Shown here: one piece after another, positions 666 to 18,132 of the stretch | Layout of the letters: each line of letters opens with the position of its first letter | How positions within the stretch are numbered: the first letter of the stretch is position 1 | Assembly: GCA_050247235.1 (NCBI GenBank) | Contig: JBFWUN010000022.1 | Location: 1,016 to 65,015 of the forward strand | Reading direction: 5' to 3' | Source of the DNA: Gammaproteobacteria bacterium | Lineage (GTDB): Bacteria > Pseudomonadota > Gammaproteobacteria > Ga0077536 | DNA: 64,000 nt | Notes under the pieces: model-generated | Database searches by the model: none | Seen by the model: only the letters and a program-made list of their open reading frames with translations | Told to the model about the DNA's origin: nothing | Made by a program: the position numbers and the translations under genes

Positions 666-705
666 GCGCGGATCCGGGAATGTGAAAGGAGTCACTGAAG
701 GCGTG

Positions 706-721
706 TGCAGGATCCGCGCCA
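706..721 (-). promoter_or_regulatory. Candidate sigma54 (-24/-12) promoter for the pilin gene
   Basis: The minus strand reads TGGCGCGGATCCTGCA against the consensus TGGCACG-N4-TTGCW. The GG and GC dinucleotides have the correct spacing, and 10 of the 12 specified consensus positions match. It lies 40 nt upstream of the pilin ATG at 665. An 8-nt inverted repeat sits upstream, TTTTCCCG at 749-756 and CGGGAAAA at 796-803, and could be an enhancer site. A sigma54 enhancer-binding protein is encoded in the same locus (16696-18132). Confidence 0.55.
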
Positions 722-817
722 AGGGCCGGCGCGCTGATCCGGCGAGGGTTTTCCCGGCGAGCACGGCTCGGACTGTCGTCGATCGGTCACTCTGTCGGGA
801 AAATGACAACGCCTCGC

Positions 818-2373: not shown

Positions 2374-4053
2374 ATGTTCGACGTTTCCGTCCTGCTCGAC
2401 CGGCGCCGCGATCACTGGGTGCTCGCGGGCATGCTGTGGCTGCTGCATGCCGCGCTGCAGGCCGCCCCGGAGAGTCCGTTCGCGCGCGCACTGATGACGG
2501 CCCATCTCGGACTCTTCTTCCTGTGGCAGCCGCTGTGGCAGCGCGAACAGCGCCTGGACCGTGGCGCCGTGGTAATCATCCTCGCGTTCGTCGCGACGTT
2601 CGTCGGCACCCTGAACGGCGGCTGGCTGTTCGCGTGGGTCATCCTGCTGATCGGCATCGTCGCCGGGCGTGCGCGCAGCGTGCGGCGCGAACGCCTGGCC
2701 TACATGCTGGGACTCGCCTGCCTGGTGTCCGAGCTGCTGCTCGGCGTGGTGCCGCTGCTGTTCGCCACGGGCGCGGTGGCGCCCGCGGTGGCGGAGGCGT
2801 TCCGCTTCGGGCTTTACGTCGTGCCCGGCGCGATCGCGCTGATCCCGGCGGCGACCGTCGCCCGCCAGACATTTCCGATCGACTTCCTGCGCGGGATCAT
2901 CGTCGCGCTGCTGACCGCGCTGCTCGCGCTCGGCAGCGTGCAGCTCACGCAGACCCGCGCGCTCGACTACGCCACTGCACTGTTCGTGTCGCTGCTTGCG
3001 GTGGCCGCGTTCCTGGTGTTCATCAGCTGGCTCGTGACCCCGACCGCCGGCACCGGGCTTGGCGCGCTGTGGGAGAAATCGGTGCTCAACATCGGCACGC
3101 CGTTCGAGGCCTGGATGGCGAGCCTCGCAGCGCGCGCGGCGGACAGCCCGGGCCCGGACTCGTTCCTGCGCGCCGCGCTCACCGAGCTCGTCGCGACACC
3201 CTGGATCGCGGGTGCCCGGTGGGAGGACGACGAAGGCGCCCATCTCGCAGGGGTCGAGACCCCGCGCGACACGCGCCTCGCGGCGGGCGACCTCGCGGTC
3301 ACCTTGTACCTCAACCATGCCCCCGGACCGACCCTGCTGCTGCACTGCCGGCTGCTGATCGACACGCTCAACCATTTCCACGCCGCGAAGCGACGCGAGC
3401 AGGAGCAGGCGCGCCAGGCGCACCTGCAGGCGATCTACGCGACCGGCGCGCGCCTGACCCACGACATCAAGAATCTCCTGCAGTCACTGAAACTGCTCGC
3501 CACCGCGGCGACCCGCGCGGGGCGTGAAGCGGACTCGCTGGAACTGCTGCAGCGCCAGCTGCCGGTGATCGTCCAGCGCCTGCAGTCGGCGCTCGACAAG
3601 CTCAACCAGCCGACCGCGGAGCCGGGCGCGACGGCGCCCATCGCGGCGTGGTGGGCACAGCTGATCGAGCGCCACGCCGCGCAGGCCGTCGCGCCAACCG
3701 CCCACCTGGACCACCCGGCGCGCGAGGTGCCGACGGATGTGCTGGACAGCATCGTCGAGAACCTGCTCGACAACGTCCGCCAGAAAGCGGCGGGACAACC
3801 GGACGTGACGCTTCACCTCGCGCTCGACGACCGCGCCGGCCGCCTGCGGATCTCGGTCGGTGATACCGGCGCGGCGATTCCCGAGGCGATCGCCCGCCAG
3901 CTGTTCCGGCAGGTGGTCCCGTCACGCGACGGGCTCGGCGTGGGGCTCTACCAGGCCGCGCAGCTCGCGCGCCACGCGGGATTCGAACTGCGTCTCGCGT
4001 CCAACATGCCGGGCGACGTGCGCTTCGAACTCGCGGACATGCGCCCCGCGTGA
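2374..4053 (+). CDS. Multi-TM sensor histidine kinase with PrsK-like/PilS-like architecture
   Basis: This is the last 559 codons of ORF 1021..4053, starting MFDVSVLLDRRRDHW. It has about 7-8 N-terminal hydrophobic segments. Kinase motifs present are the H-box ATGARLTHDIKNLLQSL, the N-box IVENLLDNVRQKA, G1 VGDTGAAIP and G2 GLGVGLYQAAQLA. The first 450 codons of the track ORF are Arg/Ala/Pro-rich shadow sequence antisense to 818-2322. Confidence 0.8.
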   Translation: MFDVSVLLDRRRDHWVLAGMLWLLHAALQAAPESPFARALMTAHLGLFFLWQPLWQREQRLDRGAVVIILAFVATFVGTLNGGWLFAWVILLIGIVAGRARSVRRERLAYMLGLACLVSELLLGVVPLLFATGAVAPAVAEAFRFGLYVVPGAIALIPAATVARQTFPIDFLRGIIVALLTALLALGSVQLTQTRALDYATALFVSLLAVAAFLVFISWLVTPTAGTGLGALWEKSVLNIGTPFEAWMASLAARAADSPGPDSFLRAALTELVATPWIAGARWEDDEGAHLAGVETPRDTRLAAGDLAVTLYLNHAPGPTLLLHCRLLIDTLNHFHAAKRREQEQARQAHLQAIYATGARLTHDIKNLLQSLKLLATAATRAGREADSLELLQRQLPVIVQRLQSALDKLNQPTAEPGATAPIAAWWAQLIERHAAQAVAPTAHLDHPAREVPTDVLDSIVENLLDNVRQKAAGQPDVTLHLALDDRAGRLRISVGDTGAAIPEAIARQLFRQVVPSRDGLGVGLYQAAQLARHAGFELRLASNMPGDVRFELADMRPA

Positions 4054-4060
4054 GTCGGCG

Positions 4061-4858
4061 TCACGGCAGGCGCCCGGCGCTGACCATGCGGCCGTTCAGG
4101 ATGCTCGGCGCGAGCCACGCGACGAGATCGTCGTATTCGCACAGCGGCGTCGCCTCGTTCGCGTCATCGCTGCAGCCGGCGGCCTCGCGCGTGTAACCGC
4201 GCGACATGAACACCGCGTCGCCGTCAGCGTTCGCGCGCTCGTCGTCGCCGCCCGGCGCGGGCAGCAGTACGCCGGTCGCGCTGCGCGCGCCGAAGCCATT
4301 GCGGCCGTGCGAGATCACCACCGCCGGCAGCGCCGTCGCGTAGGTCGCGAGCAGGAACTTGCTCTCGGTACCGGCCGTGGCCGGATTGTCGCCGCGACCC
4401 TGTACGGTCAGGTTGCCGGTGCTGCAGAGATCGAAGTGCCCGGGCGCGCCGTTGCCGTTGCACAGGCCGTCGCTCTCCGGCTGCGTGTACGCCGGGTTCG
4501 CTACCGCGTACGTGAACAGGTTGCCCCAGGCATCGGCCGGCGCGACCCCGAGATCGCTCCACGGCAGCAGGCCCACGGTGACCGTGCACACCGCGGTCGC
4601 GGGATTGCCGGGGTCGAACACCGGATCGGCGCGGCCGTCGCCGTCGGCGTCCGGACAGGGCAGGCGCCGCGCAGTGATCGCGAAGCCGCCGAGTGCCTCG
4701 ACGATGCGGTCGAGCGCCTCCTGGGTCTGCCGGCGATCGCGCGCTTCGAGCTGCGTCTCGAGCGGACCGAACAGCCCCGCGATCAGCAGCCCGAGGATGA
4801 ACAGCACCACCGTGATCTCGAGCAGGGTGAATCCGCGGTCACGCGGTCGGTGCATCAT
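4061..4858 (-). CDS. Minor pilin / pseudopilin-like protein with a prepilin methylation motif
   Basis: MMHRPRDRG|FTLLEITVVLFILGLLIAGLF..., with the start taken at the MM ten codons into the track ORF. About 265 aa. It contains RRLPCPDADGDGRADP and GLLPWSDLGV...DAWGNLFTYAVANPAY. Confidence 0.8.
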   Translation of the reverse strand: MMHRPRDRGFTLLEITVVLFILGLLIAGLFGPLETQLEARDRRQTQEALDRIVEALGGFAITARRLPCPDADGDGRADPVFDPGNPATAVCTVTVGLLPWSDLGVAPADAWGNLFTYAVANPAYTQPESDGLCNGNGAPGHFDLCSTGNLTVQGRGDNPATAGTESKFLLATYATALPAVVISHGRNGFGARSATGVLLPAPGGDDERANADGDAVFMSRGYTREAAGCSDDANEATPLCEYDDLVAWLAPSILNGRMVSAGRLP

Positions 4859-4862
4859 GGGA

Positions 4863-6731
4863 TCACTCCAGGGGATCCAGCGCACGCACCCGGTCGTCGA
4901 ACGCGGCGCCCTGATCGCGCTGCTCGAAGACGTCGTCGTCCACGGCGTTGGCGTCTTCGTAATAGTCAGCGGGCGTAGTGCCCGGGCGCGTCTGCGGCAC
5001 GGCGCCGCCGAGCGCGCGCCCGGCGCCGAGCACCAGTGCGCGGGTTGCCACCGGCTGCGCGGGCGCGGTGCCGCGCGCGGTGTTTACGGTCAGGCAGCCG
5101 AGGGCATGCGTCGCGCAGTCGCCGCCGGTGTCACCGGGGGCGTAAGCCTGCGCATAGGCGACGAACACGCGGTGGTGCCATTCGTTCGCGCGCAGCCAGC
5201 GCGGCAGCTCGCCGGGCGAGCGGCGCGTCGCGGGGAGCGTGTCCGGGGTCGGGTCGACGGCCGGATCCGTCGGGTCACGCACGCCGTCGTCATCCACTTC
5301 GAGATCGAACGGCACCTCGGCGAGTTCGAACGCGTCCACGAGATCGCCGCCGGCGAGCACGAGGCGCGAGCTGCCGAGCGCGAGCAACGTGCCGTCAGGC
5401 TCGATCCGCGTGTCGCTGAGTTCGAGTTCGAGGCGCTCGGCGACCGGCAGGGTCTCGGCATTGCGCGCGAAACGCTGACGGCGCGGCGTGGTCGCGTCCG
5501 GCGCGTCGATCCGGTACGGCCAGCCCGTCAGCACCGCGGTGTAGGTGCGCCGCAGCCGCGGCGAGGTGCCCACTTCGCGCACCGCGTGGCAGCCCATGTG
5601 ACCGCCCGACGTGACCTTGCACAGGCCGGCCGCCCATTCGCCGCCTGGCACGCCGCTCACGTCCCCCGCCAGCGACAGCACGGCCGGCAGCGCGGTGCCC
5701 GACGTGCAGGCGGGATCCGCGCTCGCGCGGACGCAGGCTTCGAGCGGCGGCTGCGCGCCCGTCGTGGTCACGCTCCCGGCCGTGCCCGACGCCCAGCGCA
5801 GCACGAACGGCGCGGCGAACGCGAACGCGCTGCCGGCGATGTCCGCCGGGTCGCCATCCGGCGTCAGCGGATCGCCGTCCGGCCCCGGATCGGATTGCCT
5901 GAGCGGCAGCAGGCCGCGCCGGCGGCCGACTTCGCCGCGGAATGTCGCGGTCGCAGGCGGCGCGAACGGCGCCAGCCAGGGATACGCGCCGTGCGCGGCG
6001 TGGTACCGGCGGAGCGCGTCGGCGACCTCCGCGAGCACCCGCGCTTCGACCGCCCCCATCAGTTCCCGGCGCGTGATCGCGCGTACCGTGTCGTTCGCGG
6101 TCGCGCTGCGCTCGGCGGTGAAGCAACCATCGCCGCGGGTCGCGTTGTCGCCTTCCAGGTAGGCCGCCGGATCGAACACGGCAGGTCCGCGTGCCTGCGT
6201 GCCGAGCCCGGCGCCCGGCGCGATGATCAGCGCGACCACGTCATCGCTGCCCGTGCACGGTGCGACATCGAGCGTGCCCGCGGTGTCCGTGTTCAGCACG
6301 CCTGCCAGGTGCGACCGGTACGGATCCGCCACGGCGTACCATGGCGGGGCGCCGCTCGCGTCCGTCAGCGCCGGCAGGTCGAGCGTGTGCCACGGCAGGC
6401 GGCCGGTCTCGGTGCCGGAAGACAGCGCGCACGGCGAATCGGCGGCGCCGAGCGGTTCCCCGGGATCGACCCGGAGGTCCGGGCACGGCAGGCGGCCGGG
6501 GCCGGTGTCGAGCGGCACCCCGGGGTTGTCGGGATAGCGCACCGCGTAGCCGAGCAGCGCATCGCGCGCGGCCTGGAGCGTGCGGCCGGTGGCGGCCGCG
6601 TCGGGGCCGCGCGCCGCGTTCAGCGCGCGCAGCAGGAAATACGCGCCGACACTCGTCAGCACCAGCAGCACCAGCAGGGTCGCGAGGCCGCGCTGGGGTC
6701 GCGCCGCGGGGATCTCAGTCGCGCGCGCCAT
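4863..6731 (-). CDS. Large pilus-associated protein with a PilX/MshP-like N-terminal hydrophobic segment; possible tip or adhesin component
   Basis: Start taken at Met59 of the track ORF: MARATEIPAARPQRGLATLLVLLVLTSVGAYFLL. About 622 aa. It shares the RLPCPD...GRLPW...WYAVADPY module with the neighbouring minor pilin and has an acidic stretch, DLEVDDDGVRDPTDPAVDPTPD. It overlaps the upstream gene by 17 nt. Confidence 0.6.
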   Translation of the reverse strand: MARATEIPAARPQRGLATLLVLLVLTSVGAYFLLRALNAARGPDAAATGRTLQAARDALLGYAVRYPDNPGVPLDTGPGRLPCPDLRVDPGEPLGAADSPCALSSGTETGRLPWHTLDLPALTDASGAPPWYAVADPYRSHLAGVLNTDTAGTLDVAPCTGSDDVVALIIAPGAGLGTQARGPAVFDPAAYLEGDNATRGDGCFTAERSATANDTVRAITRRELMGAVEARVLAEVADALRRYHAAHGAYPWLAPFAPPATATFRGEVGRRRGLLPLRQSDPGPDGDPLTPDGDPADIAGSAFAFAAPFVLRWASGTAGSVTTTGAQPPLEACVRASADPACTSGTALPAVLSLAGDVSGVPGGEWAAGLCKVTSGGHMGCHAVREVGTSPRLRRTYTAVLTGWPYRIDAPDATTPRRQRFARNAETLPVAERLELELSDTRIEPDGTLLALGSSRLVLAGGDLVDAFELAEVPFDLEVDDDGVRDPTDPAVDPTPDTLPATRRSPGELPRWLRANEWHHRVFVAYAQAYAPGDTGGDCATHALGCLTVNTARGTAPAQPVATRALVLGAGRALGGAVPQTRPGTTPADYYEDANAVDDDVFEQRDQGAAFDDRVRALDPLE

Positions 6732-7188
6732 CGGCGACCGGGGGCGCAGGATCGCGGGTGTCGTGCAAGGTGTCGCTCGCCGGATCGTAGGTCTGTCCCG
6801 CGCGCACCCGTCGCGGCGCGGACCCGTCGCGTGCGATCTCGAGACCGCTTCCGACCACCCGCGCATCCCCGTCCACGAACCCGGGAAGCGCGAGATGCCG
6901 CGCATCCCGGGGTTCGCCGTTGACCCACACGGTGGCCGGACCGTGTGAGCGGGTGACGATGCCGTTCAACGTGACGGGCGGCGGCGGTGCGCTCACCGGC
7001 ACCGGGTCGGTCGTCGCCGGCAACGCTGCCGGTTCGTCATGCCCGGCCGGTACGGGCGCGGTGACGGCGGCCCGCGCGGCGTCGAGCGCCGTGCGGGCTT
7101 CCCGATCGAAGAACAGCCGGCCGAGATCGTCCGCGTGCACCGCGCACGCCCAGGCCGCCAGGATCCCGAGAGCCGCGCCGTGTCGCAT
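6715..7188 (-). CDS. Small secreted protein, PilP/MshK-like
   Basis: Start at the internal Met of the track ORF, giving a signal peptide MRHGAALGILAAWACAVHA|DD. It has a Pro-rich linker, then VTLNGIVTRSHGPATVWVNGEPRD...RVRAGQTYDP. That matches the L-x-G-I...A-x-V-N-G...G pattern of PilP/MshK/GspC-HR-like domains. Its ATG shares one nucleotide with the stop of the upstream gene. Confidence 0.5.
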   Translation of the reverse strand: MRHGAALGILAAWACAVHADDLGRLFFDREARTALDAARAAVTAPVPAGHDEPAALPATTDPVPVSAPPPPVTLNGIVTRSHGPATVWVNGEPRDARHLALPGFVDGDARVVGSGLEIARDGSAPRRVRAGQTYDPASDTLHDTRDPAPPVADGARD

Positions 7189-7817
7189 CAGTCGACTCCC
7201 GTGCCCGCGGGCGGCGCCAGGGTGAACCACCGCAGCACGCACTCGGTCTGCAGCGCGGCGGTCGGGCCACCGGCCGTATCCGCGGGCCGGCTGTCGGCGC
7301 GCCGCAGCTCGCAGCGCTCCACGCTGAACAGGCCTTCGCCGCGCGCCTCGAGGTGCGCGAACAGGCGCGCCAGATCGCCCTCGTGCAGCAGCGCCGCGCT
7401 GATTTGCATCTCGCTGACACGGAGATCGAACGGGGCGCTCGCGAGCGGCACCTCCGGCGTGTAGGCCTGCTGCGCGTCGATCCGGTAGTCGAGCGCCGGG
7501 AGTCCCAGCGACCCGCTCGCCGTACGCACCGCCTCCACCCAGCTGAGCCGCCGCTCCGGGCCGATCACGCCACGTGCGTGCAGTGCGCGGAACGCCGGGT
7601 ACTGCGCTTCGATGATCCGTTCCTCGTCATCGACGGCGAGGTACTGGCGGCTGGCGGCCCGGAACTGCGCGAAGTTCGCGGTGTACTCCGCGTGCATGCC
7701 GCGCCAGAACCAGTCGCTGCTCCACAGGAGCAGGCCCGCGATCACCACGCTGACGGCGAACACGCCGAGCGCACCGCGCAGCACCCCCCACTCAGCCCTG
7801 GCGCGCGGCATGCGCAA
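7188..7817 (-). CDS. Bitopic inner-membrane pilus assembly protein, PilO/MshJ-like
   Basis: 209 aa with a single N-terminal TM segment (GALGVFAVSVVIAGLLLW) and a periplasmic domain of about 170 aa. It sits directly after the PilM-PilN fusion gene and overlaps it by 26 nt. Confidence 0.5.
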   Translation of the reverse strand: MRMPRARAEWGVLRGALGVFAVSVVIAGLLLWSSDWFWRGMHAEYTANFAQFRAASRQYLAVDDEERIIEAQYPAFRALHARGVIGPERRLSWVEAVRTASGSLGLPALDYRIDAQQAYTPEVPLASAPFDLRVSEMQISAALLHEGDLARLFAHLEARGEGLFSVERCELRRADSRPADTAGGPTAALQTECVLRWFTLAPPAGTGVD

Positions 7818-9387
7818 CCCCCAGCACGATGCGCAACGTGAAACCCGCGGCAGGGTCGGCGGCGCCCGCGGAGCCGGTCACGCTGGCGTCCGGATCGAGA
7901 TCGAGCGGATAGCGGGTCACCGTGACGCTCCGCACGTCCTGCTGCTCGCGCAGGCGCGCCGCGAGCGCGTCGATCGTCGCGAGCGCCCCGCGGAAGTCGC
8001 CGTCGAATGCCGCGAGGTGCCCCTCCACGTCGGTAATCGCGTAATACGCGTCATCGGCCGCCGCGGGCGCGGGCGGCTCGGGTGTCCCGGGCGCCGGTTT
8101 CCCGTCCGGGTCCGGCACGAACGAGCGCTGCCACGTGAGGCGATCGAGCACGATCGCGGGCGCGGATTCCAGCGCGGCGCCGAGCAGCCGCCACGCGGGC
8201 AGCGGCGACGCGCGCAGCGACACGAGCGCATCCGCCGTGCGCACCGCGGTATCGATCGCACTGGCGTCCAGCGGCGTCGGCGGCAGGTCCCGTCGCGCCA
8301 GCGCGAGCCGCTCCTGGTAGAACACGGACTTCTGCGCGGCGTCGAGCGCCTGCTGCTTCAGCCCGACACCCTCCACGAAGCGCAGCGCGCTCCACCCCGC
8401 GCTGCCGACGATCAGCAGCACGCTCGCGGCGAGCAGCGCGATCTTCCATTGGTGCAGCAGGTGAAAACGCGTTTCCTGGCGCTGCGCGTAGTGCACGGAG
8501 GGCGGCGCATCGAGCAGCAGCTGCGCGAACAGCGCGTCCGCGTACGGCGACACGGACTCCGCCGGCAGGCCGAGACGCGGCGCGAGATCGGCGGTGTCGA
8601 CCAGGAAGTACTGCTCGCCGTCCGAGCTTCGGCAATGGCGCTCGAGTTCCTGCAGCAGTTCCCCGTGACTGAAGAGGTAGATCGCAAGCGGGCTGTCGCG
8701 CGAGACGAGCGCCAGGCTGTTCAGGTAGCGCCTGAGCTTGGCGAGCTCCGCGAGCACGTGATTCGCGTAAGGCACCGAGCCCAGCCGCGGCATCTGCGCG
8801 AGGCGGCTGATCTTGAGCTGGCCGTCGCGGAAGAACGTCTGTCGCAGACCGCTGACCTGCTGCACGCTGATGAACAGCACGTTGCTGGCAGTCGCCTTCA
8901 CCGCCTTCAGCAGCGCCGCGCTCAGGATCGGCACCGAGTGGATCCCGGCCAGCGGCACGCGGTGCTTCAGGATCTCCGCGATCCATGGCGCCAGGGTCTC
9001 GGGCTTGGTCAGCGCGGTCAGCAGCACGCGATCGTCCCGCCGTCCCTCGCGCTCGCGGCCCTGCGCCAGCGCGAGGCAGTACGGCGTGCCGCGGAACAGT
9101 CGCGCGTACTTGCGGGCCAGCACCGCGCGGCGGTCGCCTCCGCGCACGTGCGGGATCGTGTCCTGGCGGTATTCCTCCTCCACCACGTCCACCAGCACGT
9201 GCAGCGGCGCCGCGCCCGCCTGCTCCAGGTAATGGGAGAAGGCGCTCCAGCCTCCTTCGCCGGCCGCGAACTCGTAAGCATGCGTGAGCCGGCCGCCGTG
9301 ACCGGTGTACAGCAGCGCGCGATCGGCGGCGACCAGCAGCACCCGGGCTTCGCCGCGCAGCACGTTCATCATGCGCGCCTCCCGCAC
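7792..9387 (-). CDS. PilM-PilN fusion-type assembly protein, MshI-like
   Basis: 531 aa. A cytoplasmic region of about 320 aa is followed by one TM segment (WKIALLAASVLLIVGSAGWSAL) and a periplasmic region of about 180 aa. This is the layout expected for MshI-type PilM/PilN fusions. The call rests on architecture and context, not on a motif. Confidence 0.5.
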   Translation of the reverse strand: MREARMMNVLRGEARVLLVAADRALLYTGHGGRLTHAYEFAAGEGGWSAFSHYLEQAGAAPLHVLVDVVEEEYRQDTIPHVRGGDRRAVLARKYARLFRGTPYCLALAQGREREGRRDDRVLLTALTKPETLAPWIAEILKHRVPLAGIHSVPILSAALLKAVKATASNVLFISVQQVSGLRQTFFRDGQLKISRLAQMPRLGSVPYANHVLAELAKLRRYLNSLALVSRDSPLAIYLFSHGELLQELERHCRSSDGEQYFLVDTADLAPRLGLPAESVSPYADALFAQLLLDAPPSVHYAQRQETRFHLLHQWKIALLAASVLLIVGSAGWSALRFVEGVGLKQQALDAAQKSVFYQERLALARRDLPPTPLDASAIDTAVRTADALVSLRASPLPAWRLLGAALESAPAIVLDRLTWQRSFVPDPDGKPAPGTPEPPAPAAADDAYYAITDVEGHLAAFDGDFRGALATIDALAARLREQQDVRSVTVTRYPLDLDPDASVTGSAGAADPAAGFTLRIVLGVAHAARQG

Positions 9388-9393
9388 ACCGGA

Positions 9394-10599
9394 TCAGACC
9401 CGGATCTCGGTGAACAGGTCATAGATGGGCCCCAGGATCGACGACATGATCCACAGCACGATCGCGCCCAGCAGGACCGTCACCGCGGGCAGGATCAGGG
9501 TCTGCAGCCGGGTCACCGAATCGCGCACGTCGCGGGTGAAGAAATACGTGACGTTGCTGAGCGCGTCCTCCAGCGCCCCGGTGTTCTCGCCGACGCGCAG
9601 CATGCGCACGACGAGCGGCGGGAACAGCCCGGTGGCGCCGAAGCTCGCGCTGATGCCGCCGCCGTCGGCGATCATGCGCCCGGCGTCGCGCAGCGCGGTG
9701 CGGATCGCGCGGTTGTCCGCGACGTCCTCGCCCGACCGCAGGCACTCGAGCACCGTGATCCCGGACGTGTACATGATCGAAAACACGCTGCACACGCGCG
9801 TGACCACGATCTTCTTCAGGATCGGGCCCAGCAGCGGAATGCGCAGCTTCCAGGCATCCACCCGCTCGGCGAACCCGGTGTTGGAACGCAGCGCGGCGAC
9901 GAACCCGGCAACGCACAGGGGCGGCACTGCGAGCAGCACGGGCCAGTAGGCAGACATGAACGCGGACGTCGCGATCAGCGCGCGCGTCTGCAGCGGCAGC
10001 GCCTGCCCCATCGTGCCGAGGAACGACACCAGCTGGGGCACCACGTAGACCATCAGGAAGACCAGCACCGCCAGGATCACGACGCTGACGAGCGCCGGGT
10101 ACATCAGCAGCTTCCGTGTGTAGGACGCCTGTTCGTCCTGCCACTTGAGGTTCTCGATGATCTTCTGCAGCACCTCGGGCAGGCGCCCGCTCTGCTCGCC
10201 CGCGCGGATCAGGCTGACGAACACCGTGTCGAACACCGCCGGGAAGTCCGCCATCGCGCCGGACAGCGTCTTGCCGCCCTCGATCGATTCGATCATCGCG
10301 CCGGTGACTTCGCGCAGCCGCTTGTGATCCAGCGTGTCCCGCAGATCGCCCAGCCCTTCGATGATCGGCACGCCCGCGCGCACGAGCTGCTCCAGGTGGA
10401 ACGCGAACGTGATGAGATCGATGGTGCGGATCCCGCTGCCGGTGACCGGGCGGCGGCGCGCGCGCAGCGCCGTGAAATTCACGAGATCGAGACCCATCCG
10501 GCCGAGGCGTACTTCGAGATCGGCCGGGTTGACCGCGTCCACCTTGCCGTGGAGGATGCGCCCGCGCTCGTCCATCGCCTTGTAGCGGTAGGCCTCCAT
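9394..10599 (-). CDS. mshG: GspF/PilC-family platform protein, MshG-like
   Basis: Start at MEAYRYKAMDERGRILHGKVDAVNPADLEVRLGRMGLDLV, which is Met113 of the track ORF. About 401 aa with two GspF-type repeats and three TM segments (...LLMYPALVSVVILAVLVFLMVYVVPQL...). Two nt separate it from the ATPase gene. Confidence 0.85.
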   Translation of the reverse strand: MEAYRYKAMDERGRILHGKVDAVNPADLEVRLGRMGLDLVNFTALRARRRPVTGSGIRTIDLITFAFHLEQLVRAGVPIIEGLGDLRDTLDHKRLREVTGAMIESIEGGKTLSGAMADFPAVFDTVFVSLIRAGEQSGRLPEVLQKIIENLKWQDEQASYTRKLLMYPALVSVVILAVLVFLMVYVVPQLVSFLGTMGQALPLQTRALIATSAFMSAYWPVLLAVPPLCVAGFVAALRSNTGFAERVDAWKLRIPLLGPILKKIVVTRVCSVFSIMYTSGITVLECLRSGEDVADNRAIRTALRDAGRMIADGGGISASFGATGLFPPLVVRMLRVGENTGALEDALSNVTYFFTRDVRDSVTRLQTLILPAVTVLLGAIVLWIMSSILGPIYDLFTEIRV

Positions 10600-10601
10600 G
10601 C

Positions 10602-12308
10602 TCAGTCCAGGCGATCGGTCAGGTCGACGACGCGCGAGATCTCGTCGATCGTGGTGGTGCCGTCCAGCACGCGACGCACCGCGATCTCGGCGAGCGTCAC
10701 GAAGCCCTTGCCGCGCGCGGCCTGGTGCAGCTCGCGCGCGGTCGCGCCGCGCGCCACCAGTTCGTCGAGCCCGTGGTCGAACTTCAGCAGTTCCATGACC
10801 GCCGTCCGTCCCTCGTACCCCTGGTGCTCGGTGTGACGGAATTCCTCGGCCACGCGGTGGAGCGGCGCCGGATCGTGTTCGTCGAGCCCAAGGATCTGGC
10901 GCTCGATGGCCGACGGCGCGTAGGCCTCGCGGCACTCCGGCTTCAGGCGGCGGACCAGCCGCTGCGCGAGGATCCCGATCAGGTTGCCCGCCATGACTTC
11001 CGGCTTGACGCCCATGTCGAGCAGGCGCGGGATCGCGCCGATCGCGGAGTTCGCGTGGAGCGTCGAGAACACCTGGTGGCCGGTCATCGCCGCGCGAAAC
11101 GCCATCGCCGCAGTGTCTTCGTCGCGGATCTCGCCGACCAGGATGATGTCAGGGTCCTGGCGCAGCATCGAACGGATCCCGCTCGCGAAATCGAGCCGCA
11201 CCGCTTCGTTCAGCGACGTCTGCCGGATCATGCCCATCGGGTACTCCACCGGGTCTTCGAGCGTCATGATATTGACCGACTCGGTGTTGAGGTGGTTCAG
11301 CAGGCTGTACAAGGTGGTGGTCTTGCCGCTGCCGGTCGGGCCGGTCACGAGCAGCAGTCCTTCCGGGCGCGCCACCATGAGTTTCAGCAGGTGCAGGATG
11401 TCTTCCTCGAGCCCGAGGTCTTCGATCGGCACGATGCCCTTCTGGCGATCGAGCACGCGCAGCACGATGTTCTCGCCGTGCACCGTCGGGATGGTGGATA
11501 CGCGGAAGTCGATCTGGCGACCGGTCAGCGACAGCGTGATGCGGCCGTCCTGCGGCGCACGCGTTTCCGCGATGTCCATGCCGGACATCACCTTCAGGCG
11601 CACCGCGAGCGCGGACCAGTAGTTCTTGTGCAGGCTGCGCACCTGCCGCAGCACGCCGTCGATGCGGTAGCGGAAGCGCAGGAATCCCTCTTCGGGTTCG
11701 AAATGGATGTCCGAGGCGCCGCGCTTCACGGCATCCGCGAGCAGCGCGTTGACCAGCCGCACCACCGGCTGGCTGTACTCCTGGCTGTCCGCGTCCAGGC
11801 TCTCGTAGTCGATCTCGCCGGTTTCGATCTCCTGCAGGATGCCGTCGACCGACAGCTCGAACCCGTAGAACTGGTCGATGGCCTTCTCGATCTCGGCTTC
11901 GCCGGCCATCAGCGGGACGATCTCGGTGTCGCCGCCGATCAGCGCGGTGATCTGATCGAGCGCGACGACGTTGAACGTGTCCGCCATCGCGAGGGTCAGT
12001 CGCTTGCGGTTGGCCTCGTAGGTCAGCGGGAGGATATGGAAGCGGCGCGCGAGATCCTTCGGGATCATGCGGATCGCTTCCCCGTCGACGACCACCTTGC
12101 TGAGGTCGGCCTTCTGCTGGCCGAGCGCGCCGCCGAGCACGTCCAGGATCACCGCCTCGGTGGCGAAGCCGAGCCGCACGAGGATCTTGCCGAGGTGGTC
12201 GCGGTTGCGCTTCTGCTCGGTCAGCGCGATCCGCACCTGGTCCTGGCTCACGACGCCCTTCTGGACCAGCAGTTCCCCGATGCGGAGATTGCGCTTCAAG
12301 GTGCTCAT
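10602..12308 (-). CDS. mshE: GspE/PilB-family assembly ATPase with an MshE-type N-terminal domain
   Basis: Start at MSTLKRNLRIGELLVQKGVVSQDQVRIALTEQKRNRDHLGKILVRLGFATEAVILDVLGG, which is Met91 of the track ORF. Motifs present are Walker A VTGPTGSGKTTT, TLEDPVEY, Walker B-like DIILVGEIRD and the His box TGHQVFSTLHAN. Confidence 0.9.
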   Translation of the reverse strand: MSTLKRNLRIGELLVQKGVVSQDQVRIALTEQKRNRDHLGKILVRLGFATEAVILDVLGGALGQQKADLSKVVVDGEAIRMIPKDLARRFHILPLTYEANRKRLTLAMADTFNVVALDQITALIGGDTEIVPLMAGEAEIEKAIDQFYGFELSVDGILQEIETGEIDYESLDADSQEYSQPVVRLVNALLADAVKRGASDIHFEPEEGFLRFRYRIDGVLRQVRSLHKNYWSALAVRLKVMSGMDIAETRAPQDGRITLSLTGRQIDFRVSTIPTVHGENIVLRVLDRQKGIVPIEDLGLEEDILHLLKLMVARPEGLLLVTGPTGSGKTTTLYSLLNHLNTESVNIMTLEDPVEYPMGMIRQTSLNEAVRLDFASGIRSMLRQDPDIILVGEIRDEDTAAMAFRAAMTGHQVFSTLHANSAIGAIPRLLDMGVKPEVMAGNLIGILAQRLVRRLKPECREAYAPSAIERQILGLDEHDPAPLHRVAEEFRHTEHQGYEGRTAVMELLKFDHGLDELVARGATARELHQAARGKGFVTLAEIAVRRVLDGTTTIDEISRVVDLTDRLD

Positions 12309-12312
12309 GGGC

Positions 12313-13815
12313 TCACGGGATGGCGAGGGCCGTGATGCGGGCGGCGACCGTCGCGCCATCGAATGCCGTGTTCGGACCGCGCAGCGCCTCGGCCTGCCGG
12401 TAGTAGTCCAGGGCGGCCTTGCGCTGGCCCAGCCGATCGAGACTGACCGCCAGGTTGAACGCGTAGTCCGCGTTGCGCGGGGCGCCACGGAACGCTTCGA
12501 AGTACGCGCGCTGTGCGTCGCCCCAGCGCGCTTCGCGCGCGTACAGGTTGCCGAGGGCGAAGTGCAGGTAAGGCGCATCGAGCCCCCGGTCGAGCAGCAG
12601 TTTCAGGCGGGTTTCCGTGGCGTCAGGGCCGCGGCCGCCCTCGATCAGGAACAGCGCCGCCGTGGCCACCGGGTGGTCCGGGGCGTCGGCCAGCACGGCG
12701 CGGTAATACGAATGCGCCTCGGCGAGCCGGTTCTCGCGCAGCGCGACGGCGCCGAGACCGAGCAGCGCGTCACGCTGCTCGGGATGTCGCTTCAGCACGC
12801 CGACGTACCCGCGTCGCGCGGCCGCCAGGTCCCCGCCGACATAAGCGGCGTAGGCCTGCGTCAGCGCGTCCCGGAGGGGCGTCGCCACGCCCGGGCTGCG
12901 CGCGATGTGGAGATCGCCATTGCGCATCTCGAACGCCTGCGCGGCGGACTCGGCGGACGCCGGCGGGTGCGCGCCCGGCGCCATGGATCCGTCCGCGGGC
13001 GGGGCGGGCGAAGCAAGGACGTCTGCCGTCGCCGCAGGCGGCGAGGCGGTGGCCGATGTCGGCGCCGGCGGTGCCGGTGCGGCGGAGGGGGGCGCGGGCA
13101 CCGCAGGGGATGCGTCGGCCATCACTGCGGCGGGTGCATGCTCGTCTGCCGGCGCGGCAGGCCCCGCCGGGGCCGGCGCATCCGCGGGGATCGCGACCTC
13201 CGGTGCCACCGGGATGACCGGCGCGGCGGCCGCGACGTCCGGCACCTCCGGCGGCACGTCAGGGCGCGGCGGAGTCGGCGCGATGGCGGGACCAGGCGGT
13301 TCGCGCTCCACGCCAAGCGCGACGCGCGGCGACGGGATCGCGGGCGGCCGTGGCAGGGCCGTCAGCGCGCGGTATCCGACGATCCCGGCGCCGGCGATAC
13401 ACAGGACCAGCACCACGCCAATCCCGAGCGCGAGCGGATTCGCGCGCCGGCGCGCGGTCGCCGCGAAGACGGTGCGGGCGGTCACGCGCGCGGGGCGGCC
13501 GAGCGTTCCCGGCTCCGCGAGCGGTGTCGACGAGGTGCCCTCGTGGATGGTCAGCGGCTCCGCGAGCGTGTCGTCGTCGGCGAGCCGGAAGCGCCCGCTC
13601 GCGGACAGGCGCTGCGTGGTGCTGCCGAACGCGCCGTATTCGCCCGAGCGCGCGAGACCTGGCGCCTCGTCGGTCTCGTCGCCGAGCGGCTCCAGCCGGA
13701 GCTCGCCCGGGCTGCGCGCAAACCCGTCCGTGCGCGGGGTCTCGCCGGCCGCGCGCGCGGCCGCCGCCTTCTTGTCGGCTTCGGCCTTGCGCAGGGCGTC
13801 CATCAGGAGGCTCAT
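12313..13815 (-). CDS. TPR-repeat pilus biogenesis protein, MshN-like
   Basis: 500 aa beginning MSLLMDALRKAEADKK. It has one TM segment (LALGIGVVLVLCIAGAGIVGY), a long Pro/Ala-rich linker and C-terminal TPR-like repeats (YVGVLKRHPEQRDALLGLGAVALRENRLAEAHSYYRAVL...). It lies between the secretin and ATPase genes. Confidence 0.6.
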   Translation of the reverse strand: MSLLMDALRKAEADKKAAAARAAGETPRTDGFARSPGELRLEPLGDETDEAPGLARSGEYGAFGSTTQRLSASGRFRLADDDTLAEPLTIHEGTSSTPLAEPGTLGRPARVTARTVFAATARRRANPLALGIGVVLVLCIAGAGIVGYRALTALPRPPAIPSPRVALGVEREPPGPAIAPTPPRPDVPPEVPDVAAAAPVIPVAPEVAIPADAPAPAGPAAPADEHAPAAVMADASPAVPAPPSAAPAPPAPTSATASPPAATADVLASPAPPADGSMAPGAHPPASAESAAQAFEMRNGDLHIARSPGVATPLRDALTQAYAAYVGGDLAAARRGYVGVLKRHPEQRDALLGLGAVALRENRLAEAHSYYRAVLADAPDHPVATAALFLIEGGRGPDATETRLKLLLDRGLDAPYLHFALGNLYAREARWGDAQRAYFEAFRGAPRNADYAFNLAVSLDRLGQRKAALDYYRQAEALRGPNTAFDGATVAARITALAIP

Positions 13816-13851
13816 GCCGTCAACCTCGGATCCGCGCCCGCGGGCGTGCGG

Positions 13852-15537
13852 TCAGCGGGGGCGTGCGGTGGGAGTCGCATCTTCGCTCAGGTAGCGCTCG
13901 TAGTCCTTGAGATCGGTCTCGATATTCGGATCGCCCACGATCACCGGCCGCAGGAAGATCACCAGTTCGGTCTTCTGGTTGCGCACCTCGTCGACGTCGA
14001 AGAACGCGTCGCCGATGATCGGCAGGCGCGCCAGCCCCGGGACCTCCCGGTTGCCGCTGCGCGCCTCGTCCTGCATCAGCCCGCCGAGCACGCCTACCTG
14101 CCCGTTCACGAGCTTCAGCACCGACTCCATCTCGCGGGTGCGGATGATGGGCACGGTGTTCGTGATCTCGGCGTCTCCCACCCCGTTCAGCTGGCTCGCG
14201 AGCCGCGGGCCCGGGTCGATCGCGTCGCCGATCTTCTGCGAGATGGTCGGCCGCACGGTGAGCGTGACTTCCTGGTTGGCGGAGATCTGCGGGGTTACCG
14301 CCATCACCAGTCCCACCGGCACCGAGTGCACTTCGGTTTCGACGAACGAGCGCCCCTGCGCGTTCAGCGTGGAGTCCGTGGTGGTCACGTCCAGTGTGAA
14401 GTACACGAGCTCTTCCACCACCTTGAGCAGCGCGGTCTGGTTGTTGATCACCATGAGCCGCGGGCTCGACAGCACCTTGGCGTCGCCGAACTCGCGCAGC
14501 AGCCGGATCGTCGCCTCCACCAGCTTGCCGCTCGCGTCCGGATCGCGATAGCCGAACGTGAACGCCGACACCGCGTTGTCTATGACCCCGTCGGTGACGG
14601 CGCCGAGCAGGTTCTGGTTGAAGCCGAAACCGGCCCGATCCGCGTCCAGCACGATTCGCCAGTCCACTCCCGACTGGTACTGGTCGTTCAACGAGACCTC
14701 CACGATGGTCGCTTCGATCAGCACCTGGCGGCGCGCGTTCGCGAGCACCTGGTCGATGAACTTCTGGATGAGGGCGTGCTGTGCCGTCGTCGCTTTCACC
14801 GAGATCACGCCCGCCTCGGCGTTCACGAGCAGGTTGGGCGACCCCGGCGCGCCTTCGCCGCCCGGCGCATCCTCGCCGAGAATCGACCGGATGTTCGTCG
14901 TCAGCGTGTCCCAGAAGCGGTTGGTCGAGCGCGAGTTCACCCGCGTCAGTGAGCTGTTCGCGCTGCCCGCGCCCTGCCGGCCGCCGCCGCCGCGGCCTTC
15001 TTCCTGCGCGCCACCCTCGCCGGTGGTCGCCACCTGGGTCGCGATGCTGACCGTGGTATCGGTGTCGCGCGCGAGGTTCACGTAACCCACCTCGTAGTTG
15101 CGGAAGAACGGCGCATCGGGCTCCACGAGGATGGTGCCGCCTTCGATCCGGTAGCGCAGGCCGGCCTGGCGCGCCACGCGATCGAGGATCTGCGGCAGGG
15201 TCTGTTCGATCGCATTCAACGTGACGTTGCCGTCGATCGCGCCCGCGATGTCGACGTTCATCGCCGCGTCGCGCGCGAGCGCGAACAGGAGCTCGCGCAC
15301 CGGCACGTCGTTGACCACCACGGTGTAGCGCTCGGCATCCGGGATCGGCTGCGGCGGCGGCAGGTAGCTCGCCTGCGGCACCACGTCCGGGATCCCGGGG
15401 TCGGCCGCCACGGTGTCCGCGCGCTCGAGGTGGCCGTCGGAATCCGGCAGCGGCGGTGGCGCCAGGCCGGCGCAACCGGTGAGGAGGCCGAGCACGAGTC
15501 CCAGGCGCGTGGTGCGGCGCATGCGGGCGCGCGTCAT
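13852..15537 (-). CDS. mshL: Secretin of the GspD/PilQ family, MshL-like lipoprotein
   Basis: Start at Met102 of the track ORF: MTRARMRRTTRLGLVLGLLTGC|AG, which is a lipobox. The C-terminal secretin signature is ...NNQTALLKVVEELVYFT...GGLMQDEARSGNREVPGLARLPIIGDAFF...TELVIFLRPVIV. An ATGA overlap joins it to the upstream ExeA-like gene. Confidence 0.9.
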   Translation of the reverse strand: MTRARMRRTTRLGLVLGLLTGCAGLAPPPLPDSDGHLERADTVAADPGIPDVVPQASYLPPPQPIPDAERYTVVVNDVPVRELLFALARDAAMNVDIAGAIDGNVTLNAIEQTLPQILDRVARQAGLRYRIEGGTILVEPDAPFFRNYEVGYVNLARDTDTTVSIATQVATTGEGGAQEEGRGGGGRQGAGSANSSLTRVNSRSTNRFWDTLTTNIRSILGEDAPGGEGAPGSPNLLVNAEAGVISVKATTAQHALIQKFIDQVLANARRQVLIEATIVEVSLNDQYQSGVDWRIVLDADRAGFGFNQNLLGAVTDGVIDNAVSAFTFGYRDPDASGKLVEATIRLLREFGDAKVLSSPRLMVINNQTALLKVVEELVYFTLDVTTTDSTLNAQGRSFVETEVHSVPVGLVMAVTPQISANQEVTLTVRPTISQKIGDAIDPGPRLASQLNGVGDAEITNTVPIIRTREMESVLKLVNGQVGVLGGLMQDEARSGNREVPGLARLPIIGDAFFDVDEVRNQKTELVIFLRPVIVGDPNIETDLKDYERYLSEDATPTARPR

Positions 15538-16676
15538 CGGGTCTGCGCGCCGGGCTCGCGCGATGGCGTGCCCGCGGGGGCGCCGATGATGCGATCCAGC
15601 CGATCGATCGCGTGCAGCAGCGACGGCAGGTCGGGCGCCGTCTCGTGCGCCGGCGGGGGCGCCTCGTGCGCTGCCAGCGCCCAGCCCGTCTCGGCGAGAT
15701 CGGCGAGATCGGCGTAGCGCGCGGCTGGCGCCGGGGCATCCGCCGCGAGCGGGGTGCGGGCGAGCGCCTCGCGCGTGATTTCCGGCGCCAGCAGCGCGGC
15801 GACGGCGAGCACGCCGATCACACCGGCGGAGGCCCACCACAATCGCCGCCAGGAGAACGCGCGTGCAGTCGTGAACTCGCTGTCCCGCGCGGCGCGCGCG
15901 ATGTGTCGCGGCGTCACGCGCGGTGCGCCGCTCGAGTACGCCGCGAGCAGCGCCTTGTCGGACAGCACGTTGATCCGCCGGAGCAGACCGCGCGAATGCC
16001 GCGCGAGCGCGCGGATCGCGCCGCGGGTGAACAGTTCCGGACCCCGGTACCCGCTCGCGTGCAGCCGCGTGTTGAGGTAGTCACGGATCTCACCCGCGCC
16101 GAACGGCGGCAGCTGGAAGCGGTACGTGATCCGCTCGTTGAGCTGCCGGATCTCGTGCCGGGCGAGCTTCGCGTCGAGTTCCGGCTGCCCGAACAGCACG
16201 ATCTGCAGCAGCTTGTCATGTGCCGTCTCCAGGTTGCTCAGCAGCCGGATCTCCTCCAACGTCGCGAGCGGCACGCACTGGGCTTCCTCGACGAACATCA
16301 CCACGCGACGGTCGTCGGCGTGCTTCGCGAGCAGGTAGTCGTGGAGCTGGTGCAGCAGCATCGGCTTGGTCGCCCCGTCCGGCACCACGAGCTTCAGCTC
16401 GCCGGCGATCGCCGGCAGGATTTCATCCGGACCGAGGTTCGGGTTGGCGAGGTAGATCACCTCGCAGTTCGCGGGCAGCTCGCGCTCGAGCATCCGGCAC
16501 AGCATGGTCTTGCCGCTGCCCACTTCGCCGACCACCTTGACGATGCCTTCGCCGCGCGACACCGCGTAGAGCAGTGCATCGAGCACGGCGCCGCGATTGC
16601 CGCCGGGGAAGAACAGGTCCGGGTCGGGCGTGATCCGGAACGGGGACTTGGAGAATCCGAAATGATGGCAGTACAT
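15534..16676 (-). CDS. mshM: ExeA/GspA-family AAA ATPase, MshM-like
   Basis: MYCHHFGFSKSPFRITPDPDLFFPGGNRGAVLDALLYAVSRGEGIVKVVGEVGSGKTMLCRML carries the Walker A motif. VVMFVEEAQ is Walker B-like. There is a C-terminal TM segment. The RBS GGGAAGGA lies upstream. Confidence 0.85.
   Translation of the reverse strand: MYCHHFGFSKSPFRITPDPDLFFPGGNRGAVLDALLYAVSRGEGIVKVVGEVGSGKTMLCRMLERELPANCEVIYLANPNLGPDEILPAIAGELKLVVPDGATKPMLLHQLHDYLLAKHADDRRVVMFVEEAQCVPLATLEEIRLLSNLETAHDKLLQIVLFGQPELDAKLARHEIRQLNERITYRFQLPPFGAGEIRDYLNTRLHASGYRGPELFTRGAIRALARHSRGLLRRINVLSDKALLAAYSSGAPRVTPRHIARAARDSEFTTARAFSWRRLWWASAGVIGVLAVAALLAPEITREALARTPLAADAPAPAARYADLADLAETGWALAAHEAPPPAHETAPDLPSLLHAIDRLDRIIGAPAGTPSREPGAQTR

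Positions 16677-16695: not shown

Positions 16696-18115
<1,420 letters not shown>

Positions 18116-18132
<17 letters not shown>

Follow-up and report, generated by a model that had tools for sequence, protein, structure and literature searches.

The window, the whole stretch of 64,000 nucleotides that was analysed, is a contig piece (C22:1016-65015; 67% GC) of the 4.66-Mb metagenome-assembled genome of an uncultured bacterium. A prepilin gene encoding 235 aa lies at its very start on the minus strand (1-665). The ATG of this gene occupies positions 665-663, and its last 14 codons together with the stop codon lie past the start of the window, still in the contig. The N-terminus of the product, MSTRRQQ followed by GFTLVEIAIVLVIIG, constitutes a prokaryotic N-methylation motif (N_methyl). 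The AlphaFold model of the pilin consists of a long N-terminal helix and a small head (pLDDT 82.8). A fold search of this model against the PDB returned no significant solved-structure match, only non-significant ones to TcpA/CofA. Orthologues of the pilin, 59-89% identical, are present in 30 related genomes from the same genus, family, and class.

Upstream of the pilin gene, and on the same strand, lies a gene for a 244-aa protein. The entire gap between the pilin start and the TGA of this gene (820-818) is a 152-bp spacer at 666-817. A weak Shine-Dalgarno-like GGA can be read 7 nt before the ATG (673-675, minus strand), and the pilin orthologues carry AGGA or GAGG at the equivalent position. 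The idea that the spacer contains a leader RNA element or a terminator was rejected, because the spacer matched no Rfam family, its RNA fold was not unusual (z-score -1.09), and only a single weak 5-bp terminator-like hairpin (824-809) was found between the 244-aa gene and the pilin gene. The spacer also carries a perfect 10-nt inverted repeat (GCGCGGATCC / GGATCCGCGC, at 666-675 and 710-719) that links the spacer of the sigma-54 core described below with the ribosome-binding and start-codon region. The left arm of this repeat lies upstream of the predicted transcription start, so that a hairpin is possible only in read-through transcripts from the upstream genes, in which it could mask the start codon region. 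The repeat is peculiar to this genome, other orthologues having 3-8 nt at most, and for this reason it was kept out of the proposed mechanism.

The genes around the pilin form a type IV filament locus. The order starts with metF, the gene of a sigma-54 activator, an MshM-like ATPase, a 639-aa protein, a TPR protein, and an MshE-type ATPase. These are followed by a GspF-type platform protein, a 531-aa protein, the minor pilins, and a divergently oriented kinase gene, and then by an ABC-2-like membrane protein, the 244-aa protein, and the pilin. About 17 loci share this order from metF to the pilin. Pfam revealed no secretin domain in the locus proteins (4061-15739), and the 639-, 531-, 680-, 209-, and 175-aa locus proteins gave no Pfam match even at E = 1. 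In other words, Pfam offers no candidate for the outer-membrane part of the filament system. The locus resembles the MSHA locus of Vibrio cholerae in having an MshE-type ATPase with an MshEN domain, a GspF-type platform protein, genes for MshM-like and TPR (MshN-like) proteins, and a run of minor pilins. It differs in gene order, in the lack of a detected Pfam secretin domain, in a 235-aa pilin without a significant solved-structure match, and in its apparent built-in sigma-54 two-component switch. A search of the literature turned up no description of sigma-54 control over MSHA-type pilins.

The two candidate regulatory genes lie at opposite ends of the locus. The activator gene (16696-18132, minus strand) encodes a sigma-54 enhancer-binding response regulator with REC, Sigma54_activat (AAA+), AAA_lid, and HTH_8 domains (Pfam), a Walker A motif GESGVGKE, and a Walker B motif DEVGE; it is the proposed activator of the pilin gene. 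Its sigma-54 contact loop (residues ~225-230) reads GAYTGA instead of GAFTGA, and the same reading is found in the orthologue of genome G008. The proposed partner (2374-4053, plus strand) is a polytopic sensor histidine kinase with ~7-8 hydrophobic or transmembrane segments within its first 225 aa, an H-box THDIKN at residue 363, and a HATPase_c domain behind the polytopic N-terminus. The domain content agrees with the first-pass annotation, which had placed an NtrC-family regulator and a kinase at these positions. The two genes are 12.6 kb apart with no adjacent kinase-regulator pair, and this arrangement is conserved in relatives.

The sigma-54 core promoter

The minus strand of the spacer reads CCCTTGGCGCGGATCCTGCACACGCC, with TGGCGC at 721-716 and CTGCA at 710-706. 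The first-pass annotation had interpreted TGGCGC-N5-CTGCA as a sigma-54 motif with canonical spacing between the GG and the GC, and both the motif and its spacing were confirmed. The -24/-12 core TGGCGCGGATCCTGCA (706-721, minus strand) has its GG at 720-719 and its GC at 708-707, spaced by 10 nt, and A706 lies 41 nt before the ATG. Against the consensus TGGCAC-N5-TTGCW, 14 of the 16 specified-plus-spacer positions are compatible and two core positions mismatch. A sigma-54 factor is available in the genome, as rpoN is present (Sigma54_DBD match of 231 bits at C2:69918-70391). Transcription is predicted to depend on sigma-54 and, judging by the position of the -12 GC, to start near 695 on the minus strand (within 2 nt), giving a leader of ~30 nt.

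How much weight can such a match carry? The bare pattern TGGCNC-N6-TGCW occurs twice in the window against 1.63 occurrences expected from shuffles, which is the chance level. For this reason the pattern count was not used as support, and the case for the promoter is built on comparison with relatives. The 260 nt upstream of the start codon of each of the 30 orthologous pilin genes were extracted. The pattern TGG-N9-TG(C/T/A) was present 37-48 nt before the ATG in 27 of them, and one further orthologue had it at 87 nt. The spacers have otherwise diverged to the point where they cannot be aligned. Elsewhere in the same upstream regions the pattern was met as a stray match only four times, so that a match within a 12-nt window is expected in less than 1% of sequences. 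The conserved promoter feature is thus far above chance. The first-pass annotation had made its sigma-54 reading depend on conservation of the motif upstream of orthologous pilins; the fixed position of the core in 27 of 30 orthologues bears that reading out.

Further evidence comes from a position weight matrix constructed from the orthologues with the window's own site left out. The window site scored 20.8 and ranked fifth in the whole genome on both strands. The genes behind other top-ranked sites are ntrB (followed by ntrC), cheW-like and flgJ-like genes, and PEP-CTERM genes. These are expected sigma-54 clients and therefore serve as a positive control for the matrix.

The possibility that the -24/-12 match is fortuitous or vestigial was weighed against these results. 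Under this explanation transcription of the pilin gene would either read through from the permease/244-aa gene pair or begin at an unrecognised sigma-70 promoter. The chance frequency of the bare pattern fits it, as does the position of the pilin gene 152 bp behind the 244-aa gene on the same strand with just the weak hairpin at 824-809 in between, and two genomes described below (G021 and G031) show that the pilin can exist without a sigma-54 promoter. However, a fortuitous match does not account for a core, a distance to the ATG, and paired palindromes that are conserved in family- and class-level relatives, nor for the fifth rank in the leave-one-out matrix, and a search over 560-960 found no sigma-70-like promoter. 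RNA data point the same way, though weakly. Two RNA runs were compared with the region, in which contigs show presence and not absence of transcripts. An own-strain contig of run X6 (99.7% identical) covers 836-2009, that is, the ABC-2-like permease and 244-aa genes, which are thus expressed in the X6 sample. This contig ends at 836, before the pilin gene and 18 nt short of the stop of the 244-aa gene. The pilin region was represented in the two runs only by conserved N-terminal pilin segments from other organisms, with no own-strain contig. The absence of a read-through contig fits, as a weak indication, an independent and tightly shut promoter. Taken with the comparative evidence, a fortuitous match appears highly improbable, and the sigma-54 promoter before the pilin gene is very probably real.

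The 5-nt core spacer (711-715) is itself conserved among the family loci (L001-L030) with the consensus GGATC, each position being shared by 16-20 of 27. The base preceding the -12 TGC is mostly C in the family, as compared with T in the general consensus.

The arrangement of promoter and palindromes is found beyond the orthologues, before distant pilin homologues (33-50% identity) in metagenome-assembled genomes labelled Sulfurisoma, Burkholderiales, and Gammaproteobacteria. It is absent before the homologues of Thauera, Zoogloea, Methyloversatilis, and Massilia. In several genera (L039, L042-L046, and L051), the pilin promoter is separated from the 244-aa gene by an additional ~1.4-2.2 kb of DNA. 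In another locus (L050, G050:C16:1800-21790), two tandem pilin paralogues are present, 59% and 56% identical to the query, and the upstream copy is preceded by a sigma-54 core and one palindrome.

Enhancer palindromes and an IHF-like site

Sigma-54 promoters are expected to have an upstream activating sequence (UAS) at a distance of ~80-150 bp and a cognate enhancer-binding protein, and the first-pass annotation had proposed an 8-nt inverted repeat as the UAS. The repeat exists and is perfect (TTTTCCCG at 749-756 and CGGGAAAA at 796-803, with arms 39 nt apart). As a binding site it did not hold. Seven inverted pairs, this one included, are present in 221 GC-rich bases, which is not above chance, and no relative has anything corresponding to its right arm (756-749), so the repeat was rejected as the enhancer. 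Its left arm (803-796) falls within one of the palindromes described next. Since the right arm is not conserved and the left arm lies inside another element, the 8-nt repeat is read as coincidental, the right arm being probably a product of chance.

The palindromes emerged when the orthologue spacers were aligned on the -24 element. The distal palindrome, UAS1 (TGTCATTTTCCCGACA, 793-808, minus strand), is an exact TGTC-N8-GACA with its centre at ~-105 from the predicted start. The proximal palindrome, UAS2 (TGACCGATCGACGACA, 774-789, minus strand), is centred at ~-86; it has one mismatch in its left half (TGAC) and is recognised from the clustered sites in orthologues. Each is 16 bp long, and the two centres are 19 bp apart. 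The family consensus is TGTCGAAATTTCGACA, in which the inner, unconstrained positions are conserved too. Of 27 non-redundant loci, 25 have such palindromes upstream of the promoter, amounting to 40 sites with at most one mismatch from TGTC-N8-GACA, as compared with 0.98 such sites (maximum 4) in shuffled spacers. At least two palindromes are present in 13 of the 27 loci. Across the orthologues the palindrome centres cluster at -62 (the position of UAS2) and -82 (that of UAS1) from the -24 GG, and further groups lie about one or two helical turns off these main clusters. Genome-wide there are 23 exact TGTC-N8-GACA sites, UAS1 among them, and the pilin promoter is the sole place in the genome where a sigma-54 match is combined with two upstream palindromes; no further unit of this kind was found in the locus or in the genome.

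It appears, therefore, that the two 16-bp palindromes are likely the enhancer of the pilin promoter, and their predicted ligand is the locus activator. Could they be operators of a different protein, such as a repressor or a non-sigma-54 activator, with the enhancer-binding protein acting elsewhere or from solution? Palindromes of this type can suit many helix-turn-helix proteins, and binding by the locus activator is a prediction. Yet the sites come in pairs with a spacing of 19-23 bp, they keep fixed distances of -62 and -82 from the -24 element, which is the classic position of an enhancer, and they are not met apart from the promoter and the locus regulator. An operator for another protein is on these grounds a poor candidate, hardly better than the fortuitous promoter considered above. 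The spacer is very probably a sigma-54 promoter with its own conserved activator-binding sites, as judged from their conservation among relatives.

Between the palindromes and the core, some relatives carry an additional element. A full IHF-like site, WWTCAR-N4-TTR, is present in 10 of 27 orthologues and starts 18-20 nt upstream of the TGG. The window has at this place (727-740, minus strand) a degenerate remnant, GGATCAGCGCGCCG, which retains only ATCAG of the site, so that the assignment is weak for this genome and is suggested by the intact site in relatives.

Co-occurrence of kinase, activator, and promoter

The first-pass annotation had drawn a circuit from kinase to regulator to sigma-54 to pilin, and the pattern of gene presence across genomes supports it. 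Of 61 genomes, 26 encode both the full-length activator and the kinase. A sigma-54 core is lacking in front of two pilin orthologues (L014 in G021 and L028 in G031), which belong to genomes that are 95-97% complete and have neither the kinase nor an orthologue of the activator, the best matches being at most 42% identical. Both genomes still encode paralogous sigma-54 activators. In one of them, G031, the pilin gene lies directly behind the last minor pilin gene.

A second pattern comes from one clade within the genus (loci G008:C193, L132; G004:C2, L133; and G007:C82, L032), in which the promoter and palindromes are kept and the kinase is absent. In G004 and G008, the activator begins at residue ~149, right after metF, and its receiver domain is absent; an orthologous activator was not found in G007. 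If the receiver domain is the route by which the kinase controls the activator, such a joint loss of kinase and receiver would be expected. Loss of the promoter with the activator and loss of the receiver with the kinase are natural genetic controls, like those built at the bench. Kinase, regulator, sigma-54 promoter, and pilin thus vary together across genomes, and the circuit is supported in the form of correlations, which are specific and agree in direction; the pairing of kinase and activator is proposed from their correlated presence and loss.

A different enhancer-binding protein could in principle activate the promoter, for example PrsR, a PilR-like paralogue, or NtrC, and the locus regulator would then have another target. 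The genome encodes 12 full sigma-54 activators (11 besides the locus activator), including PrsR, NtrC, and NtrX, and the true PrsR is a separate gene (493 bits on a partial sequence). Moreover, the PEP-CTERM promoters of this genome carry dyads of related shape, namely TGTCAACGGATTTGACA and TGTAA...TTACA boxes. Set against this, the absence of the pilin promoter coincides exactly with that of the locus regulator (G021 and G031) even though paralogous activators are still there, and the PEP-CTERM box differs in its spacing and in its TTTACA end (PMC1569441). In addition, each 20-kb syntenic locus has just one strong sigma-54 site accompanied by palindromes, the one at the pilin promoter; with no second unit of this type, the locus activator has no other visible target nearby. 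Activation by another protein in place of the locus regulator is accordingly an unlikely explanation, less far-fetched than the two considered above. Cross-activation of the pilin promoter by other sigma-54 activators, such as the true PrsR, may take place.

The complete circuit, running from the kinase through the locus activator and sigma-54 to the pilin by way of the two palindromes, is thus the probable arrangement. In the proposed mechanism, 666-817 would function as a dedicated sigma-54 unit consisting of UAS1, UAS2, the decayed IHF-like element, the -24/-12 core, a start at ~695, and the ATG at 665. The kinase (2374-4053) would phosphorylate the receiver domain of the activator (16696-18132), a phosphotransfer suggested by their shared presence and loss. 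The activator would then oligomerise on the two palindromes. Where relatives have kept the IHF site intact, IHF probably assists by bending the DNA. The activator would remodel the sigma-54 closed complex at 721-706 and open it, and transcription would begin near 695 and give a ~30-nt leader with the weak GGA ribosome-binding site before the ATG. The pilin would be the only gene of the locus to be switched in this way, the machinery genes being without such a promoter. The signal perceived by the kinase can only be guessed at; by analogy with PilS, it might be unassembled pilin in the membrane.

Relation to known pilin switches

The circuit resembles several sigma-54 systems. PilS/PilR together with RpoN controls pilA in Pseudomonas aeruginosa, Geobacter, and Myxococcus, and in Xanthomonas the regulator is PilRX (PMC7170775, PMC6058289). 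The first-pass annotation had suggested a parallel with this system. The parallel is sound as a functional analogy. As in PilS/PilR, a polytopic histidine kinase is combined with an NtrC-type REC-AAA+-HTH activator and a -24/-12 promoter directly before the major pilin gene, and the pilin would be the main or only target. However, the genes of the kinase and the regulator are found 12.6 kb from each other, at either end of the locus, whereas pilSR is an adjacent operon, and the filament is MSH-like (MshEN ATPase, MshM-like AAA_22, and TPR proteins) instead of a type IVa pilus. The putative enhancer also differs, being a pair of 16-bp palindromes where PilR sites are tandem TGTC-containing repeats.

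The kinase is nearest to PrsK among NCBIfam models, with 52.6 bits against a cut-off of 300 (TIGR02916). The activator is nearest to NtrC (324.5 bits, cut-off 558.6) and to PrsR (307.9 bits, cut-off 502.6, TIGR02915), and neither a PilS nor a PilR model was among the NCBIfam matches of the two proteins. In full-length comparisons with its paralogues in the genome, the activator does not exceed 38% identity, and its receiver domain is most similar to the one in the genome's PrsR. By these comparisons, the kinase and activator appear to be distant relatives of PrsK and PrsR and not members of those families, and the PilS/PilR parallel would be a functional analogy only.

The layout also matches that in commensal Neisseria, where Nps/Npa, RpoN, and IHF control pilE, and the pilin alone among the pilus genes is under the two-component system (PMC6528607). 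Both promoters show a UAS, then an IHF site, and then a -24/-12 core, and in both cases the pilin would be the sole pilus gene controlled in this manner. The pilus class differs, the likeness is one of layout, and the IHF-like site is intact in only about one third of the relatives and decayed in this genome.

PrsK/PrsR/PrsT form a third system, in which a sigma-54 promoter is associated with a 'PEP-CTERM box', a 17-nt motif ending in TTTACA (Haft et al. 2006, PMC1569441). The likenesses are several: the DHp/catalytic part of the kinase best matches PrsK, the regulator matches PrsR almost as well as NtrC, the locus has an ExeA/EpsA-like ATPase and a TPR protein, and both systems use single-gene sigma-54 units with an upstream dyad. 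However, the scores of both proteins (52.6 vs 300 and 307.9 vs 502.6 bits) are far below the curated cut-offs, the target here is a prepilin and not a PEP-CTERM protein, and the box is TGTC-N8-GACA. The identity of the palindromes with the PEP-CTERM box was rejected, because both the published motif (PMC1569441) and the genome's own PEP-CTERM promoters differ from them, and no TTTACA is present in the spacer at 666-817.

Those promoters deserve a separate description. Strong sigma-54 cores lie before genes with PEP-CTERM-like C-termini at C27:32400, C9:80096, and C3:78696. Two of the three have upstream TTTACA boxes, the classic PEP-CTERM box, and one has the 17-nt palindrome quoted above, which is like the pilin enhancer plus one base. 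PrsR targets in this genome have TGT...ACA-type dyads.

It is conceivable, as a speculative reading that is more doubtful than not, that a pair of the PrsK/PrsR lineage, and not PilS/PilR, was independently recruited as a one-promoter pilin switch of an undescribed MSH-like filament, its 7-8-TM kinase sensing unassembled pilin. If so, it would represent a convergent evolution of PilS-like pilin autoregulation, and the clade without kinase and receiver would be a natural constitutive-on variant.

The switch itself is of an ordinary PilS/PilR-style kind, of which PilS/PilR and Nps/Npa are examples, and the finding leaves the understanding of sigma-54 or pilin regulation unchanged. The pilus locus is an undescribed one from uncultured bacteria. 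Its value lies in a testable regulatory map (core, enhancer consensus, probable IHF site, activator, and kinase) for a pilus family known only from metagenome-assembled genomes from landfill, sludge, and freshwater. In related genomes, the core combined with the palindromes can serve to locate the major pilin gene and its regulator. The case also adds to the idea of a tendency of major pilin genes, alone among pilus genes, toward sigma-54 two-component control.

Two genomes have the locus in a reduced form. In G004, a deletion has taken out the entire assembly machinery and left the pilin with its promoter; what remains of the activator (residues 150-341) is fused to the 680-aa protein at residue 238 of the latter. 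In G010 (C15:602-1876), where there is no pilin and no kinase, only the activator orthologue is left, and it contains an in-frame TGA, so that the region looks like a decaying locus.
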